Assembly: GCF_054482595.1 (NCBI RefSeq)
Contig: NZ_CM137008.1
Strand: one strand, 5' to 3'
DNA: 64,000 bases
The number at the start of each line of letters is the position of its first letter. Position 1 is the stretch's first letter. A program made the position numbers and the translations under genes. The notes under the pieces are model-generated. The model searched no databases. It worked only from the letters and a program-made list of their open reading frames with translations, and was not told the DNA's origin. Of the stretch, positions 1,777 to 49,945 are shown piece after piece.

Positions 1777-1869
1777 GGTGAGGTGGCCGAGAGGCTGAAG
1801 GCGCTCCCCTGCTAAGGGAGTATGCGGTCAAAAGCTGCATCCGGGGTTCGAATCCCCGCCTCACCGCCA
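1777..1869 (+). tRNA. serV: tRNA-Ser (anticodon GCU), long variable arm
   Basis: 93-nt sequence GGTGAGGTGGCCGAGAGG...CCTCACCGCCA with GCT anticodon loop. Confidence 0.93.
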
Positions 1870-1872
1870 TTT

Positions 1873-1949
1873 GCATCCGTAGCTCAGCTGGATAGAGTAC
1901 TCGGCTACGAACCGAGCGGTCGGAGGTTCGAATCCTCCCGGATGCACCA
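1873..1949 (+). tRNA. argV: tRNA-Arg (anticodon ACG), copy 1 of 4
   Basis: 77-nt GCATCCGTAGCTCAGCTGGATAGAGTACTCGGCTACGAACCGAG...GATGCACCA. Confidence 0.93.
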
Positions 1950-1974
1950 TATTCTCCGTAACTTTCAGCGATGA

Positions 1975-2084
1975 AGGTATGGAAGAGGTGGCGGTACTAA
2001 CCGCAGGCACCAGGGAGGATAACGTTGCTTTAGCAACGGCCCGAAGGGCGAGCCGCAAGGCGAGTAATCCTCCCGGATGCACCA
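1975..2084 (+). repeat. tRNA-Arg 3'-end-derived spacer repeat (copy 1)
   Basis: unit ...AGGCACCAGGGAGGATAACGTTGC...AATCCTCCCGGATGCACCA ends with a duplicate of the tRNA-Arg 3' acceptor/T-arm. Confidence 0.7.
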
Positions 2085-2148
2085 TCTCTTACTTGATACG
2101 GCTTTAGTAGCGGTATCAAAAAATCTGCAGTAAAGTAAGTTTCCCGAT

Positions 2149-2225
2149 GCATCCGTAGCTCAGCTGGATAGAGTACTCGGCTACGAACCGAGCGGTCGGA
2201 GGTTCGAATCCTCCCGGATGCACCA
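2149..2225 (+). tRNA. argY: tRNA-Arg (ACG), copy 2
   Basis: identical 77-nt tRNA-Arg sequence. Confidence 0.93.
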
Positions 2226-2287
2226 TCTCTTACTTGATATGGCTTTAGTAGCGGTATCAATATCAGCAGTAAAATAAATTTCCCGAT

Positions 2288-2364
2288 GCATCCGTAGCTC
2301 AGCTGGATAGAGTACTCGGCTACGAACCGAGCGGTCGGAGGTTCGAATCCTCCCGGATGCACCA
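2288..2364 (+). tRNA. argZ: tRNA-Arg (ACG), copy 3
   Basis: identical 77-nt tRNA-Arg sequence. Confidence 0.93.
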
Positions 2365-2394
2365 TATTCTCCGAAATCTTCAGCAATGAAGATA

Positions 2395-2499
2395 TCGAAG
2401 AGGTAGCGGAATTAACCGCAGGCACCAGGGAGGATAACGTTGCGCCAGCAACGGCCCGAAGGGCGAGCCGCAAGGCGAGTAATCCTCCCGGATGCACCA
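2395..2499 (+). repeat. tRNA-Arg 3'-end-derived spacer repeat (copy 2)
   Basis: near-identical to unit at 1975-2084. Confidence 0.7.
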
Positions 2500-2562
2500 T
2501 CTCTTACTTGATATGGCTTTAGTAGCGATATCAATATCAGCAGTAAAATAAATTTTCCCGAT

Positions 2563-2639
2563 GCATCCGTAGCTCAGCTGGATAGAGTACTCGGCTACGA
2601 ACCGAGCGGTCGGAGGTTCGAATCCTCCCGGATGCACCA
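2563..2639 (+). tRNA. argQ: tRNA-Arg (ACG), copy 4
   Basis: identical 77-nt tRNA-Arg sequence. Confidence 0.93.
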
Positions 2640-3956: not shown

Positions 3957-5540
<1,584 letters not shown>

Positions 5541-5544
5541 CAGA

Positions 5545-5621
5545 AAAGAAAAAGGCCACTCGTGAGTGGCCAAAATTTCATCTCTGAATTCAGGGATGAT
5601 GATAACAAATGCGCGTCTTTC
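5545..5621 (-). ncRNA. micA: MicA (SraD) small regulatory RNA
   Basis: reverse complement reads GAAAGACGCGCATTTGTTATCATCATCCCTGAATTCAGAGATGAAATTTTGGCCACTCACGAGTGGCCTTTTTCTT, in the gshA-luxS intergenic region. Confidence 0.9.
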
Positions 5622-5689
5622 ATATACTCAGACTCGCCTGGGAAGAAAGAGTTCAGAAAATTTTTAAAAAAATTACCGGAGGTGGCTAA

Positions 5690-6205
5690 ATGCCGTTGTT
5701 AGATAGCTTCACAGTCGATCATACCCGGATGGAAGCGCCTGCAGTTCGGGTGGCGAAAACAATGAACACCCCGCATGGCGACGCAATCACCGTGTTCGAT
5801 CTGCGCTTCTGCGTGCCGAACAAAGAAGTGATGCCAGAAAGAGGGATCCATACCCTGGAGCACCTGTTTGCTGGTTTTATGCGTAACCATCTTAACGGTA
5901 ATGGTGTAGAGATTATCGATATCTCGCCAATGGGCTGCCGCACCGGTTTTTATATGAGTCTGATTGGTACGCCAGATGAGCAGCGTGTTGCTGATGCCTG
6001 GAAAGCGGCAATGGAAGACGTGCTGAAAGTGCAGGATCAGAATCAGATTCCGGAGCTGAACGTCTACCAGTGTGGCACTTACCAGATGCACTCGTTGCAG
6101 GAAGCGCAGGATATTGCGCGTAGCATTCTGGAACGTGACGTGCGCATCAACAGCAACGAAGAACTGGCGCTGCCGAAAGAGAAGTTGCAGGAACTGCACA
6201 TTTAG
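5690..6205 (+). CDS. luxS: S-ribosylhomocysteine lyase LuxS
   Basis: 171-aa [28 protein letters not shown]... Confidence 0.96.
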
Positions 6206-6232: not shown

Positions 6233-6258
6233 AAAAAAGCCAGTTCAAATGAACTGGC
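6233..6258 (-). terminator. intrinsic terminator downstream of emrB
   Basis: hairpin GCCAGTTCAAATGAACTGGC followed by a T-run on the minus strand. Confidence 0.6.
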
Positions 6259-6268
6259 TTAGTTGTAC

Positions 6269-7807
6269 TTAGTGCGCACCGCCTCCGCCGCCACCTGCGC
6301 CAAAGGGCGGTTTAGCAAACCACACCAGCCCCAGCAAGACGAGGAATATCCCGGCTGACATCCAGAAGATCTCATTTGCGGAAATAATCAGCCCCTGATT
6401 GGTGATCTGCTGGGCAATCCAGCCTGATGCCTGCTGTTGCGTCATCCCAAGTCCTTCCAGTTGACTGTACATCGCCTGGGCATTCGGGTTGAACGGGTTT
6501 ACCGACTCGGTTAACTGCGCATGGTGCATCGACTCGCGGTTGGTCCACATGGTTGTGGTTATCGACGTGCCGATAGACCCCGCCAGCGTACGCGTAAAGT
6601 TGGAGAGGCTCGATGCCGCCGCCAGTCGTTCCGGTGGCAAACCAGACAGCGTAATGGTGGTCAGCGGCATAAAGAAGCAGGCCACCGCAAACCCCTGGAT
6701 AAACTGCGGCCAGGCCGACGCGCCAAAATCCATACCTGGTTCAAAGGTATAGGCACGCCAGTAGAAGCAGACGGCATACATAATAAAGCTGAAGGTTACC
6801 AGTCGGCGCATATCCAGTTTATGCGCGAAGCGGCCGATAATCGGCGACAGTATCACTGGAATAATCCCTACCGGCGCAGAGGCCAAACCTGCCCAGGTCG
6901 CCGTGTAACCGTAGACCTCCTGCAACAACTGCGGCAGCAGAACAATCGCGCCGAAGTAGAGCATATACGCGAGGCTGATACACAAACAGCCGATGGTGAA
7001 GTTGCGCGACTTAAACAACGACAGATCGACTATCGGGTTATCGTCGGTCAGCTCCCAGACAATCAGGAAGCAGATAGCCACCACCGCCACCACGGTAAGG
7101 ATGATAATTTCCTGTGATGAAAACCAGTCCAGCTCTTTACCGCGGTCGAGCATAATCTGCAGGCTGCCTATACCAATAACCAGCAGTGCCAGCCCCACGG
7201 CATCAATCCGCCGCCGTTCGGTGCGGGTTTCGCGTCCGCGCAGAGTTTGCAGTGTCATCAACACCACCGCCACGCCAATCGGCACGTTGATGAAGAATAT
7301 CCAGCCCCAGTGGTAATTATCGCTGATATACCCGCCGAGGATTGGGCCGCAAATTGGCGCGACAATCACCGTCATCGACCACAACGCCAGCGCGATTGAG
7401 CGTTTGGCTGGCGGGTAATTATTCAGCAATAGACTTTGCGAAAGCGGGATCAACGGCCCGGCGACAATCCCCTGAATCACGCGGAAGAAGATCAGCATAT
7501 TCAGGCTGCTGGAGACACCACACGCCCACGACGCAATAGCAAAGGCGATGGTTGACCAGAGGAACAGTTTCACTTCCCCGACGCGCTTTGCCAGCCAGCC
7601 GGTAAGCGGGATCGAGATGGCATTCGCCACCCCGAAAGAAGTGATTACCCACGTTCCCTGGCTGAGCGATGAGCCCAGATTCCCGGCGATAGTGGGGATC
7701 GCCACGTTAGCAATGGTGGAGTCCAGCACCTGCATGAATGTCGCTAGTGACAGCGCAATCGTCATAATGACCAGTTGCGCGCCTTCCAGCGGTTTTTGCT
7801 GTTGCAT
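6269..7807 (-). CDS. emrB: multidrug efflux MFS permease EmrB
   Basis: 512-aa 14-TMS-like ORF starting MQQQKPLEGAQLVIMTIALS. Confidence 0.95.
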   Translation of the reverse strand: MQQQKPLEGAQLVIMTIALSLATFMQVLDSTIANVAIPTIAGNLGSSLSQGTWVITSFGVANAISIPLTGWLAKRVGEVKLFLWSTIAFAIASWACGVSSSLNMLIFFRVIQGIVAGPLIPLSQSLLLNNYPPAKRSIALALWSMTVIVAPICGPILGGYISDNYHWGWIFFINVPIGVAVVLMTLQTLRGRETRTERRRIDAVGLALLVIGIGSLQIMLDRGKELDWFSSQEIIILTVVAVVAICFLIVWELTDDNPIVDLSLFKSRNFTIGCLCISLAYMLYFGAIVLLPQLLQEVYGYTATWAGLASAPVGIIPVILSPIIGRFAHKLDMRRLVTFSFIMYAVCFYWRAYTFEPGMDFGASAWPQFIQGFAVACFFMPLTTITLSGLPPERLAAASSLSNFTRTLAGSIGTSITTTMWTNRESMHHAQLTESVNPFNPNAQAMYSQLEGLGMTQQQASGWIAQQITNQGLIISANEIFWMSAGIFLVLLGLVWFAKPPFGAGGGGGGAH

Positions 7808-7823
7808 CACACGCACCTCTGGA

Positions 7824-12215: not shown

Positions 12216-12296
<81 letters not shown>

Positions 12297-45461: not shown

Positions 45462-45480
45462 GGCGTGGCGGGGAGAGCAT
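45462..45480. other. cos-like site (P2/P4 cohesive-end-like 19-mer)
   Basis: GGCGTGGCGGGGAGAGCAT matches the recalled P2/P4 cos GGCGAGGCGGGGAAAGCAC at 16 of 19 positions. Confidence 0.45.
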
Positions 45481-45690
45481 TGCGCGCGGAGTGGGTGTTT
45501 TATTTTTTGTATGTCACATAAACTTAAGGTATGCAGTACGTAGCTAGTTTCACTAATACTGGGACGAAAAGAATGGTGCGTTTGTAAAAATGTATTTTAA
45601 TTTTTGGATTGTGATACAGAGTAAATTTCATTTAATTTTGTATTTTAATTGCGGTAAGCTATAACAAACTTGAAAAGGAATTATAATCAC

Positions 45691-47352
45691 ATGAGGTATG
45701 TTGAAAATATGAAAATTCTAGTAACTGCACCTTCAAGAAAAAATCACCCAAAAAATAATGTATTGTATGATTTTATATTGCAACAAGATGATTGGAATGA
45801 TTTTAGTTTTATCACTAAGTATCATTTATACATTACAACGAAACTTACTGGTCTTGATGAAATAGAGTATGCTGGGGTTGTTAAAATTATAAAAAAAGAT
45901 CAGTCTGAAGCTGATTACTACATGGTTGAAGAAGGCGAGTTTTCATATTTGAGTGACGAGTTTTGTTCTGTGGGACAATCTCTTGATTATTATGGGAGGC
46001 TCTCTGAATTGGGGAGTGAAATTTGTGAGGGGATATTGACATCATTACGCGACATTAATATGTTTGATTATGTTTCTGAGGGTTTCAAAAATGAAAGAGC
46101 TTGGGAACGTTCTATCATGAGAGACTTAAATAATGATGATGATATTTTTATTCTTCCAAAGTTTATAATAAAAAATCAGTTCTCGGCTATACCTAGTATA
46201 GACATGAAGTTTTCATTTATGTATTCAGGAATGATTAATACTCTTTCGTTTGATTTCGATTCAATACAATATGGATATTTTGAAAGTGAAAAACTACCAT
46301 GTAGAATGTCCGTAATTGTAGGCCGGAACGGTTGTGGGAAGAGTACAACATTGGCAAGACTTTCTAGGGTTGCTTATTCTTCAACTCAGGACAGAAAAAA
46401 AGAACAGATAGCCAAAATTGGTGAAATTCTTCCAGAGGGATTAGGTTTTCCGAAAATAATCAACCTTTCATACAGTGCTTTTGATAGTTTTCAAATACCC
46501 GGGTGTACTTTTAAAGAAAAGAAACAGCTAAGGCAAGACATACTTGATGGGAAAGGTAGGTATATATATTGCGGAGTCAGGGATGTTGGTGCTGAATTGG
46601 ATTATGTATTGGCTAATGTAGATGAAAACAATATGGATATAGAGTTTATTACATTAGATAGGCAAGAGAGAACCATATTAAAACCTCTTGAAGTACTTAG
46701 TGAAGAGTTTTATGGTGTCTTGATAAAAATACATAAAGATAGTGATAAGTGGAATTTGTTTAATAAAGTGATGATGAAGTTGAGAGAAGAGGTTTCATTA
46801 TCTGAAATTATTGATGAAATCTTTAAAGATGATTTTATTCTTAAATCTAAAGAATATTTTCATAGGTTGAGTACAGGGCATAAATTTGTTTTGCATTCGA
46901 TGGCGCATATTTTGTTGTATATTGAAAAAAGATGCCTTGTTTTATTTGATGAGCCTGAAACTCATTTGCACCCGCCATTGCTTGCGGTTTTAATGAGCGC
47001 TCTGAGAATTGTTTTGAACGAAGTCGATGCTTTTGCTATTGTTGCTACTCATTCACCTGTGGTAGTACAAGAAACATTAAGTAAAAATGTTAATGTTATA
47101 ACTAGAAATGGGGAGTTTACTGATTTTCAACGACCTGAAATTGAAACTTTTGGTGAGAATATTGGAGCAATAACATCATCAGTATTTTCATTAACGACTC
47201 AAATAACTGATTATCATGATGAATTAGACAAGCTAATAATAGAATATAAAAATAATAATAATCCATTAGATGACATTGAAAAATGTTTTGATACAGGTCT
47301 TAGTACACAAGCAAGGTCTTATGTAATATCTAAATTAGCGGTAAAAGGATAA
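45691..47352 (+). CDS. ABC-type (AAA15/AAA21, OLD-family-like) ATPase with about 200-aa N-terminal domain of unknown function
   Basis: Walker A GRNGCGKST, signature-like LSTGHK, Walker B LVLFDEPETHLHP, H-loop ATHSP; SD AAGGA 11 nt upstream of ATG. Confidence 0.8.
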   Translation: MRYVENMKILVTAPSRKNHPKNNVLYDFILQQDDWNDFSFITKYHLYITTKLTGLDEIEYAGVVKIIKKDQSEADYYMVEEGEFSYLSDEFCSVGQSLDYYGRLSELGSEICEGILTSLRDINMFDYVSEGFKNERAWERSIMRDLNNDDDIFILPKFIIKNQFSAIPSIDMKFSFMYSGMINTLSFDFDSIQYGYFESEKLPCRMSVIVGRNGCGKSTTLARLSRVAYSSTQDRKKEQIAKIGEILPEGLGFPKIINLSYSAFDSFQIPGCTFKEKKQLRQDILDGKGRYIYCGVRDVGAELDYVLANVDENNMDIEFITLDRQERTILKPLEVLSEEFYGVLIKIHKDSDKWNLFNKVMMKLREEVSLSEIIDEIFKDDFILKSKEYFHRLSTGHKFVLHSMAHILLYIEKRCLVLFDEPETHLHPPLLAVLMSALRIVLNEVDAFAIVATHSPVVVQETLSKNVNVITRNGEFTDFQRPEIETFGENIGAITSSVFSLTTQITDYHDELDKLIIEYKNNNNPLDDIEKCFDTGLSTQARSYVISKLAVKG

Positions 47353-47357
47353 TACAT

Positions 47358-48203
47358 ATGTGGACACTACCTTTACCAGATGATGCGGATAGAATGAGCG
47401 AGTTATTAACCGCTTTAACGTATAAAAATGGAAATCCTAAGTATGCTTTAACACAAGATGAAAAGGATAAAATTGAAACTATTTATACTTTATATCACGA
47501 TCGTAAAGCAACTCCCTGTGCTGAATTTTTAGCAGAGGAAATAAGTGATGAAACCCAAAATGCTATAAAAACAGCTTATTCAGAAGTGCAAATAAATGGA
47601 CGGCTTTCAACCCTTCGCTCAAGGATTTTATTAAGTTCTAAAAAATGCCCATTATGTGGGATCGAATCATCAACCGACCTAGATCATTATCTTCCCGAAT
47701 CAATATATAAATGTCTCGCAGTATATTCAAGAAACCTGATACCGACCTGTCATAAGTGCAATAATAAAAAAAGAGCTGGTGTAGCAGAAAATGGAGTTGG
47801 ATTTATTCATGTGTATTATTTTGATGAGCCCGATGGTGTATTTTTCGTTGCCAATACTGAAATGATAGATGGTGCTTTAGTAATTGATTTTAATATCAAT
47901 ATGATCGAGGGTATGACTCGAGAGGTATATGATTCATTATGCTTTCAAAATAGAGTTGTTAACCTAAATGAAAGGTTAAAGATGGAAGCGAATGATTTTT
48001 TAGGGGGGCTCTATACTTCACTTGAAGAAACATATAATTCTGCAGGCCAAGAAGGATTAAGATTATTTCTAAAAAGAACTAGGGATGACTATACCAGACG
48101 TTATGGGCTTAATCATTGGAGAAGAGCATTGATAGATAGTCTATCCGATAATGTGGAGTTCCTTGACGCTGGTTTTATTACTGCCTTAGGAACTCCAGAG
48201 TGA
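47358..48203 (+). CDS. HNH endonuclease-domain protein (281 aa)
   Basis: CPLCG...DLDHYLPESIY...NLIPTCHKCNNKK HNH/zinc-finger motif; start 5 nt after the ATPase stop. Confidence 0.8.
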   Translation: MWTLPLPDDADRMSELLTALTYKNGNPKYALTQDEKDKIETIYTLYHDRKATPCAEFLAEEISDETQNAIKTAYSEVQINGRLSTLRSRILLSSKKCPLCGIESSTDLDHYLPESIYKCLAVYSRNLIPTCHKCNNKKRAGVAENGVGFIHVYYFDEPDGVFFVANTEMIDGALVIDFNINMIEGMTREVYDSLCFQNRVVNLNERLKMEANDFLGGLYTSLEETYNSAGQEGLRLFLKRTRDDYTRRYGLNHWRRALIDSLSDNVEFLDAGFITALGTPE

Positions 48204-48205
48204 GT

Positions 48206-49399
48206 TTACTGGTGGGGATGAATATGTCGTCCCCACCAATTCATCAATTCAATTCTTGCGTGTAAATATGTTGAGCGATTGTAGGCTTTTCGTACTTCAT
48301 TTCTATCTGAATGAGCAAGAGCAGCCTCAATTACATCAGCATTAAAACCGGCTTCATTCATTGCCGTACTTGCAATCGAACGTAAACCATGTGCAACCAA
48401 TTTCCCACCATAACCTATTCGCTTAAGTGCAGCATTGGCAGTTTGGCTATTCATAGGTTGTTTTGGATTATTTCTGCTGGGAAAAACATGTTCTCGATGT
48501 GCACTAATAGGTTTCATCACATCCAGAATTTCTAATGCTTGTGGTGATAAAGGAACAATGTGTTCACGCTTAGCCTTCATTCGTTCGGCGGGAATCGTCC
48601 AGAGTTTGGCATTGAGATCGATCTCTACCCACCGAGCACCAGAAGCCTCAGAAGGGCGCACTAGGGTCAGAAGCTGCCATTCAATAAGACAGCGAGTCGG
48701 AACAGACAGATTCGACATGACCAGGGAACGCATAAGCTTAGGTAATTCTTCTGGCCGTAGCGTGGGCATATTTTGCTTTTTGGGTTTCTCAAAAGCCATT
48801 CCTACACCCGAAGCCGGGTTGGCATCTATCAGACCGGTATTAACCGCATAAATCATTATTTCGTTAATACGCTGAACTAGGCGACGAACCGTCTCTAATG
48901 CGCCACGTGCTTTGATTGGCTCCAATGCTTCAACAATCGTTCTGGCCTTTATATCCTGAACGGGCATCGCACCGATTGCCGGGAACACGTCTTTATCCAA
49001 AGAACGCCAAATATCCTTTGCATAATCCTCTGTGACACTTCTGCTTTTAATCTGGAACCAGTTAGCGGCCACAGTTGAGAAAATGCTGTCTAACTCAATC
49101 TGGCGTTGTGCTGACGCTTGCTCCTGTTGCTGTTGTGGATCCATGCCTTGCGCGAGCGTGGTTAAGTGCTGGTCGCGTATCTGACGAGCTGCTGCGAGTG
49201 TAAGGGCAGGGTATGAGCCGAGACTCAAATTTGTGCGGCTGCTGCTTCCCGGTCGTTGATAACGGAAGCGTCAGAGTTTTTTACCGGAGGTTTTGACGAG
49301 TAAGAACAGGCCATCACCATCATGCAGGGTGAAGTCTTTTTCGCGGGGTTTCGCTTTGAGGATTTCGTTGTTAGTGAGGGGGCGTGTAATGCGCGCCAT
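48206..49399 (-). pseudogene. intA: P4-type tyrosine integrase with in-frame TGA at codon 43
   Basis: N-terminus MARITRPLTNNEILKAKPREKDFTLHDGDGLFLLVKTSGKKL then TGA then RFRYQRPGSSSRTNLSLGSYPALT... in the same frame; stop sits where related integrases have Trp (TGG). Confidence 0.75.
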
Positions 49400-49449
49400 G
49401 TCTGGATCCCTTCCATAATTGGTACACGTTTAATGGACCACAGTATAGC

Positions 49450-49477
49450 GTGTACCTAAACGTGTACCAATTTTCTC
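49450..49477 (+). repeat. 28-bp direct repeat (int-proximal copy)
   Basis: GTGTACCTAAACGTGTACCAATTTTCTC identical to 42613-42640. Confidence 0.8.
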
Positions 49478-49514
49478 TGGATTTAGCCGGATGTTCTCGG
49501 ACAACGACAGACAC

Positions 49515-49582: not shown

Positions 49583-49945
49583 TGGTGGAGCTGGCGGGAG
49601 TTGAACCCGCGTCCGAAATTCCTACGTCCTCGGTACTACATGCTTAGTCAGTCTTTACATTCGCTTGCCAGCTGCGGACGGACACGCCACTAACAAACTA
49701 GCCTGATTAAGTTTTAACGCTTCAACCCCAGGCAGGGCCTCCACGCGATCTCTTTTGGGTTTGACCTCTCTTGATCCCCGTCCTAAGAGCGGAGGCTAGG
49801 GAGAGAGGGCTCTAAGCAGGTTATTAAGCTGCTAAAGCGTAGTTTTCGTCGTTTGCGACTATTTTTTGCGGCTTTTTACGAGGCCAACCGCCCCTCGGCA
49901 TGCACCTTGGGTTTCGCAAATCCCGTCGAATCCAGAATCAGCCCC
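49583..49945 (-). ncRNA. ssrA: tmRNA (SsrA), 363 nt
   Basis: reverse complement begins GGGGCTGATTCTGGATTCGACGGG and ends ...GCGGGTTCAACTCCCGCCAGCTCCACCA. Confidence 0.97.

Follow-up and report, generated by a model that had tools for sequence, protein, structure and literature searches.

The 5' region of the envelope-stress small RNA MicA reportedly pairs with ompA (Udekwu 2005; Rasmussen 2005), and bidirectional intrinsic terminators are said to be symmetrical, with an A-tract on one side of the hairpin and a U-tract on the other. MicA and its setting between gshA and luxS were described between 2001 and 2010, and the identical K-12 MicA is established in the literature as an Hfq-dependent repressor of ompA and other envelope mRNAs. 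Transcription of micA is strictly sigma-E-dependent, with a sigma-E consensus of GGAACTTTT at -35 and GTCAAA at -10 (Papenfort 2006). Work on the neighbouring luxS gene mapped a distal, sigma-S-like promoter, P1, by 5'-RACE and primer extension to a start at -332 from the luxS ATG, assigned to it a full-length luxS mRNA of >800 nt, described the conversion of long luxS forms to a form termed R3 through MicA and RNase III, and associated the P2 luxS ends with A/U-rich single-stranded sites; the same study reported no gshA-luxS bicistronic RNA and detected no MicA-related effect on the level of LuxS protein (Udekwu 2010, PMC2956633). Furthermore, 3' ends of E. coli mRNAs have been shown to be defined and protected by stable stem-loops without U-tracts (Dar and Sorek 2018, NAR, PMC6061677), and RNA 3' ends of strain MG1655 have been mapped by Term-seq in three conditions (Adams et al. 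2021, eLife, PMC7815308, Supplementary file 1). Here we compare with these systems the gshA-luxS spacer in a stretch of 64,000 nt from NCBI RefSeq assembly GCF_054482595.1 (contig NZ_CM137008.1), hereafter the window.

The micA locus and its neighbours

An Rfam cmscan search matched RF00078 (MicA) at 5621..5550 on the minus strand over model positions 1-75 of 75, with a score of 83.9 bits (gathering score 41 bits; E = 2.6e-12). All 73 nt at 5621..5549 are identical to K-12 micA (b4442, NC_000913.3 2814802..2814874), which supplies the confirmation of sequence identity that the first-pass annotation of this DNA had called for. The entire 149-nt gshA-luxS spacer shows no difference from K-12, and the 501 bases around micA match many complete E. 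coli genomes at 100% and were found in 5,423 of 5,426. We identify the locus as micA; it belongs fully to the MicA family and carries every feature that can be tested in sequence. K-12 numbering runs in the opposite direction, such that the window position equals 2820423 minus the K-12 coordinate, a relation derived from the window and the K-12 record. The features of the locus are as follows.

3984..5540, plus strand: gshA (glutamate-cysteine ligase), 518 aa, TTG start, TGA stop at 5538-5540; from the open reading frame list, the RefSeq annotation of 100%-identical matches and the K-12 annotation
5690..6205, plus strand: luxS (S-ribosylhomocysteine lyase), 171 aa; from the open reading frame list and annotation
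5546..5621, minus strand: MicA sRNA, 76 nt by its Term-seq 3' end (annotated K-12 end 5549, Rfam end 5550)
5600..5621, minus strand: MicA 5' single-stranded, target-pairing region, nt 1-22 (about nt 1-23 unpaired in the Rfam consensus structure, nt 7-22 in the predicted fold)
5578..5599, minus strand: MicA stem-loop 1, nt 23-44 (predicted folds and Rfam structure line)
5572..5577, minus strand: MicA A/U-rich linker AAUUUU, nt 45-50; its plus strand is the AAAAUU tail after the hairpin and contains the gshA end at 5576 seen in M63
5554..5571, minus strand: MicA Rho-independent terminator hairpin GGCCACU-CACG-AGUGGCC, nt 51-68 (terminator scan and folds)
5546..5553, minus strand: MicA U-tract UUUUUCUU, nt 69-76 (sequence, terminator scan and Term-seq)
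5554..5571, both strands: inverted repeat GGCCACT-CGTG-AGTGGCC, the MicA terminator, folding also in gshA-sense RNA
5628..5655, minus strand: putative sigma-E-type micA promoter, -35 TGAACTCTT at 5655..5647 and -10 GTCTGA at 5633..5628, placed by motif

The first-pass annotation had placed a MicA sRNA at 5545..5621, between gshA and luxS and on the strand opposite to both, and had called the arrangement a known one. The identification, the antisense orientation to both plus-strand neighbours and the prior description (Udekwu 2010, PMC2956633; MicA review PMC4618604) are all borne out; the 5' end was exact, and the 3' end lay 1 nt from the Term-seq end, 4 nt from the annotated end and 5 nt from the Rfam end.

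For comparison, we used 113 Enterobacterales genomes retrieved by a MicA 5' pattern, and in most of the loci compared a luxS start motif lies upstream of micA. The putative promoter, consisting of TGAACTCTT, a 13-nt spacer and GTCTGA ending at -7, agrees by motif comparison with the sigma-E consensus, and its -35 AAC and GTCTGA are each at least 90% conserved across the 113 loci. From 5655..5628 it would drive an approximately 76-nt Hfq-dependent sRNA on the minus strand, which would repress ompA and other envelope mRNAs in trans and is also fully complementary to the long luxS 5' leaders. The terminator stem comprises 7 bp, 5 of them G-C, with TTTTTCTTTT after it, and the Term-seq end falls 8 nt past the stem. 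In all 111 loci scored the stem is a perfect inverted repeat of at least 6 bp, with T-A/A-T swaps at pair 7. That the match represents a chance hairpin or a degenerate relic is exceedingly improbable: nothing was found in favour of this reading, which is refuted by the full-length Rfam match and the identity to K-12, and against which also stand the retention of promoter, stem-loops and terminator in about 113 species and the Term-seq 3' end in all three conditions.

With MicA (SraD) of E. coli K-12 the locus shares the 73 nt and the whole spacer, the synteny, the sigma-E-type promoter, the two stem-loops and the Rho-independent terminator. The sRNA itself shows no difference; the host is another E. 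coli strain, with synonymous differences in gshA and a different ssrA-side island. In the PGAP (RefSeq) annotation of the matching non-K-12 E. coli genomes, gshA and luxS are present and micA is absent; only the K-12 record has micA.

Several features elsewhere in the window were observed alongside. The ssrA-side island (34700..49500), lying between tRNA-Ile (34593..34665) and ssrA (49583..49945, minus strand), occurs in full in just 15 of the 5,426 E. coli genomes. According to the annotation of a matching genome it carries ypjCB, ypjA and an AbaSI-family restriction endonuclease (about 42693..43574, minus strand), together with degraded P4-like satellite genes, namely a partial primase-like gene, a psu pseudogene and an integrase pseudogene (about 48206..49399). 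An AAA ATPase and HNH endonuclease pair at about 45691..48203 in the same island looks like anti-phage defence cargo. Upstream of yqaB-yqaA-gshA, a tRNA cluster at 1777..2636 (plus strand) comprises one long-arm tRNA and four identical tRNAs, given as tRNA-Ser and four tRNA-Arg in the RefSeq annotation of the matching genome; its 275/139/275-nt spacing is that of K-12 and not of O157:H7. Finally, Rfam returned a match to naRNA4, the REP-derived nucleoid-associated ncRNA 4, at 12219..12296 on the minus strand (76.4 bits, threshold 59.5).

Strand asymmetry of the shared hairpin and mapped RNA 3' ends

The hairpin at 5554..5571 has a predicted stability of -11.0 kcal/mol on either strand and is part of the minimum-free-energy fold predicted for the plus strand. 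It begins 13 nt past the gshA stop, and the MicA Term-seq 3' end at 5546 is 5 nt from the stop, in keeping with the earlier observation that the terminator hairpin adjoins the end of gshA. The 13-nt gap is approximately the complement of the MicA U-tail, which fills most of it. A distance of 8-27 nt between gshA stop and hairpin, with modes at 13 and 10, is kept in 113 of 114 genomes, which range from Escherichia to Yersinia, Serratia, Pantoea, Erwinia, Dickeya, Pectobacterium, Edwardsiella and Hafnia. This tight spacing is old, and a gap occupied by the U-tract of MicA is a simpler account of it than bidirectional termination.

The two sides of the hairpin differ in what follows them. Just after the hairpin the minus strand reads TTTTTCTT and the plus strand AAAATTTC, a U-rich tract being present on the minus strand only; the gshA-side tail (AAAAUUUCAU / AAAATTTCAT) has no U-tract. 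A consensus terminator scan called the hairpin on the minus strand only. Across the 113 genomes, the 8 nt after the hairpin contain 6-7 T on the MicA side versus 0-4 (mean 2.1) on the gshA side, and a rough d'Aubenton-Carafa-type score, to be taken only as an index, is +32.5 for the MicA side versus -51.1 for the gshA side. The luxS terminator scores -41.2 on its luxS side by the same rough index, although its Term-seq end is strong and constant. U-tract scores are therefore unreliable predictors of in vivo behaviour and do not settle the question for gshA.

The luxS terminator hairpin (6237..6260) adjoins the stop of the convergent emrB gene (6269..7816, minus strand) and is terminator-like on both strands in the scan, and the luxS-side Term-seq end at 6263-6264 (K-12 2814159/60) appears in all three conditions. 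To judge from sequence, the luxS/emrB hairpin has a stronger claim than the MicA hairpin to being a bidirectional terminator.

Term-seq at the gshA 3' end, which had been proposed as a check on the locus, is already published (Adams 2021, PMC7815308). Each listed coordinate corresponds to base 51 of a 61-nt string, as verified arithmetically against K-12 coordinates, and the data record steady-state ends, in which termination and processing are not separable. The mapped ends and the published luxS 5' ends, converted to window positions, are as follows.

5546 (K-12 2814877, plus), minus strand: MicA 3' end; 143,109 reads in LB OD 0.4, 50,179 in LB OD 2.0 and 122,784 in M63 (PMC7815308)
5576 (K-12 2814847, minus), plus strand: 'primary gshA' end, GGCCAAAAU, stem +5; 177,654 reads in M63 (PMC7815308)
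5562 (K-12 2814861, minus), plus strand: gshA-sense end at the second base of the hairpin loop; 34,625 reads in LB OD 0.4 (PMC7815308)
5509 (K-12 2814914, minus), plus strand: gshA-internal end; 305,886 reads in LB OD 2.0 (PMC7815308, Supplementary files 1 and 3)
5345..5358, plus strand: luxS distal promoter P1 inside gshA, -10 TATGAT at 5345-5350 preceded by C, start G at 5358; placed by arithmetic, the hexamer by inspection
5607..5608, plus strand: R3, the proximal luxS mRNA 5' end, overlapping MicA by 14-15 nt; placed by arithmetic (PMC2956633)

On the MicA strand a 3' end at the hairpin is thus present in all three conditions. On the gshA strand it lies at stem +5 in M63 only, where its reads exceed those of MicA's own end, and in the loop in LB OD 0.4; in LB OD 2.0 the same dataset records no gshA-sense end at the hairpin (PMC7815308). 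The loop position 5562 is one that neither termination nor exonuclease stalling at the folded hairpin would give. Since P1 starts inside gshA and its luxS transcript exceeds 800 nt, P1 RNA necessarily crosses the MicA hairpin. Within micA and overlapping it, sigma-70-like hexamers on the plus strand (5599..5628; ATGATA, 18-nt spacer, TATACT, 9 of 12 matches) are no more than expected from shuffled sequences and differ in position from the proximal luxS 5' end reported at about 5607-5608.

In LB OD 2.0 the end at 5509 has more reads than MicA itself; the P1 start lies 151 nt upstream of it, and the MicA 3' end at 5546 is 37 nt away. It may belong to a small RNA internal to the ORF, or arise by collision or processing. 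The 5' end of P1 RNA (GGUAUUGGCGG) can pair with 5494-5504 at 10 of 11 positions in the window and at 11 of 11 in the K-12 sequence, leaving a 5-nt 3' overhang. A discrete structured RNA from 5358 to 5509 was nevertheless rejected as a conserved structure: in a set of more than 100 genomes only Escherichia and a few relatives keep the pairing, which elsewhere drops to 5-8 of 11, against about 4.6 (maximum 7-8) in shifted-register controls.

With respect to Rho, the published listing holds no Rho-termination (BCM-sensitive) region on the gshA strand here, which is absence of evidence only (PMC7815308). On the micA strand, a Rho region is listed inside gshA at about 5178 (K-12 2815245, plus; Rho score 4.87; PMC7815308 Supplementary file 2), some 370 nt past the MicA 3' end, which suggests that antisense transcription passes the MicA terminator and is then stopped by Rho near 5178. 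The supplements of TERMITe 2025 and SMRT-Cappable-seq 2018 contain no entries for gshA, micA or luxS. A full-text literature search found no discussion of the MicA terminator as a gshA terminator, and in the literature examined we found none of condition-dependent ends on the gshA strand.

Origin of the gshA-sense ends

Because its hairpin abuts the gshA stop, the first-pass annotation had suggested that the MicA terminator may also terminate gshA, acting bidirectionally. One part of this proposal holds: gshA transcripts can end at the MicA terminator hairpin, as the ends at 5576 in M63 and at 5562 in LB OD 0.4 demonstrate. A bidirectional terminator in the full sense would combine a stable GC-rich hairpin in the RNA of both strands with a U-tract on both strands, in vivo RNA 3' ends shortly past the hairpin on each strand, and little read-through in both directions. 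Predicted folds give the hairpin in both RNAs. The gshA side, however, has no U-tract, the scan calls the minus strand only, P1 luxS RNA reads through the hairpin (PMC2956633), LB OD 2.0 lacks a gshA-sense hairpin end, and two-sided 3' ends are found in only one of the three conditions. The MicA hairpin is therefore leaky and not a canonical bidirectional intrinsic terminator. It marks the 3' end of gshA mRNA and probably protects it. With the elements of Ju, Li and Liu (2019, Nat Microbiol) the locus has in common a single GC-rich inverted repeat between convergent units and 3' ends nearby on both strands. It differs from that reportedly symmetrical class in that the gshA side here is AAAAUUUC, with 0-4 T in 8 nt across species, and in its documented read-through.

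In order to rationalise the gshA-sense ends near the hairpin, we favour, with reasonable though limited confidence, read-through followed by processing, with the hairpin serving as a protective 3' stem-loop; the data show what the locus is, its anatomy and conservation, the mapped ends and the read-through, and the enzyme or event that makes the ends is what we infer. The inverted repeat is primarily MicA's own terminator and also folds in gshA-sense RNA 13 nt past the stop, where it would act as the 3'-terminal stem-loop of gshA mRNA and not as a canonical intrinsic terminator. As the gshA side has no U-tract, polymerase would largely or partly read through, and the ends by the hairpin would most likely derive from processed read-through RNA. 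The likeliest routes would be an endonucleolytic cut in the single-stranded AAAAUUUC linker between two hairpins, MicA-guided RNase III cleavage, or both, after which the upstream gshA mRNA would be shielded by the hairpin from 3' exonucleases. In the predicted folds, the end at 5576 lies within a 6-nt single-stranded AAAAUU linker between hairpins of similar strength at 5554..5571 and 5578..5599, the plus strand of the latter folding into a predicted 9-bp hairpin of -12.0 kcal/mol. A cut near 5576/5577 would have P2-type luxS 5' ends as its downstream products, the linker being just such an A/U-rich single-stranded stretch as has been associated with P2. The sizes agree with this, in that a luxS RNA beginning near 5577 would measure about 690 nt, compared with about 660 nt for R3.

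Exonuclease trimming from the luxS terminator or from an RNase III site is less likely as the sole source of the 5576 end, since the equally stable hairpin at 5578..5599 should stop an exonuclease first, and the published Term-seq listing contains no plus-strand 3' end just past that hairpin (PMC7815308). Some observations speak against read-through and processing. Weak intrinsic termination followed by slight trimming would likewise leave an end at stem +5, the unreported bicistronic gshA-luxS RNA fits real termination of transcripts from the gshA promoter, and the luxS terminator manages a strong, constant end with a poor U-tract. Read-through and processing also leave the loop end at 5562 and the end at 5509 unaccounted for.

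Two other explanations have to be weighed against read-through and processing. In one, the MicA hairpin is a true bidirectional terminator that also halts RNA polymerase arriving from gshA, so that one element ends both convergent transcripts, perhaps with help from elongation factors, the A4/U3 tail or the release of the ribosome 13 nt upstream. We regard this as doubtful, and yet partly efficient genuine termination on the gshA side is a possibility to be taken as a serious rival. The abundant M63 end, recorded as 'primary gshA', would be accounted for, as would the equal stability of the hairpin on both strands, and neither a bicistronic gshA-luxS RNA nor a Rho region on the gshA strand is on record; moreover, a comparably poor U-tract does not keep the luxS terminator from working in vivo. 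The conserved distance between gshA stop and hairpin could be counted in its favour, but the MicA U-tract explains that distance more simply. Its main difficulties are that a gshA-side U-tract is absent in all 113 species, with no scan call on the gshA strand, that P1 luxS transcripts traverse the hairpin, and that LB OD 2.0 lacks a gshA-sense end at the hairpin and the LB OD 0.4 end falls in the loop.

The other explanation attributes the gshA-sense ends to convergent micA activity, through RNase III cutting of a perfect MicA:mRNA duplex or head-on collision of polymerases, in which case the choice of 5576, 5562 or 5509 would follow sigma-E/MicA activity. This we consider unlikely, despite several features that it would capture well. 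The end position shifts with growth condition, and the loop end at 5562, hard to obtain from a folded hairpin, would be easily obtained if the strand were in a MicA duplex. Two polymerases meeting head-on are spaced by approximately 37 nt, and 5509 lies 37 nt from the MicA termination point at 5546; the agreement with the collision spacing, however, is a numerical coincidence. The Rho region near 5178 on the micA strand inside gshA would reflect antisense transcription past the terminator, and cleavage dependent on both RNase III and MicA has been demonstrated in the overlapping luxS leader (PMC2956633). Against these points, 5509 lies outside the 76-nt MicA duplex, and MicA reads are lower, not higher, in LB OD 2.0, where 5509 dominates. 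The broader proposition that convergent sigma-E-dependent micA transcription or MicA pairing, acting by polymerase collision or RNase III, drives the switching of gshA-sense ends (5576 in minimal medium, 5562 in exponential LB, 5509 in stationary LB), and thereby couples envelope stress to glutathione synthesis and AI-2, is quite unlikely.

Comparable 3' stem-loops and significance

In function, the MicA hairpin would by analogy resemble the protective stem-loops of Dar and Sorek (PMC6061677) and the hairpin between ygdI and gcvB. With the former it shares a precise steady-state 3' end directly past a stable stem-loop without uridines; it differs in that their cases are Rho-dependent, whereas the gshA strand has no recorded Rho region, and in that its stem-loop is borrowed from a convergent sRNA gene. 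At ygdI/gcvB, a different sRNA and a different mRNA, the primary ygdI end similarly lies 3 nt past the opposite-strand gcvB terminator hairpin, without a U-tract (Term-seq, PMC7815308). Borrowing a convergent sRNA's hairpin is thus not unique to gshA-micA. The locus is also akin to cis-antisense sRNA/mRNA pairs cut by RNase III, MicA being perfectly complementary to long luxS leaders and R3 requiring both MicA and RNase III, but it departs from them in that MicA acts mainly in trans through Hfq and no effect on LuxS protein was detected.

Nothing in these results is new in kind, as the arrangement, the promoter, the antisense relation to luxS and the RNA-end map have all been published, and the significance beyond correct annotation is small. 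As automatic RefSeq annotation omits micA outside K-12, its detection from sequence alone is useful. Should the coupling through micA activity be true, envelope stress would set the balance between a hairpin-capped gshA mRNA and transcription continuing into the luxS leader, and one shared inverted repeat would couple envelope stress, glutathione synthesis and AI-2 production. Independently of this, gshA offers a clear case of an mRNA using the terminator hairpin of a convergent sRNA as a 3' stem-loop without a U-tract, and the gshA-micA pair bears on the practice of calling 'bidirectional terminators' from 3'-end maps.
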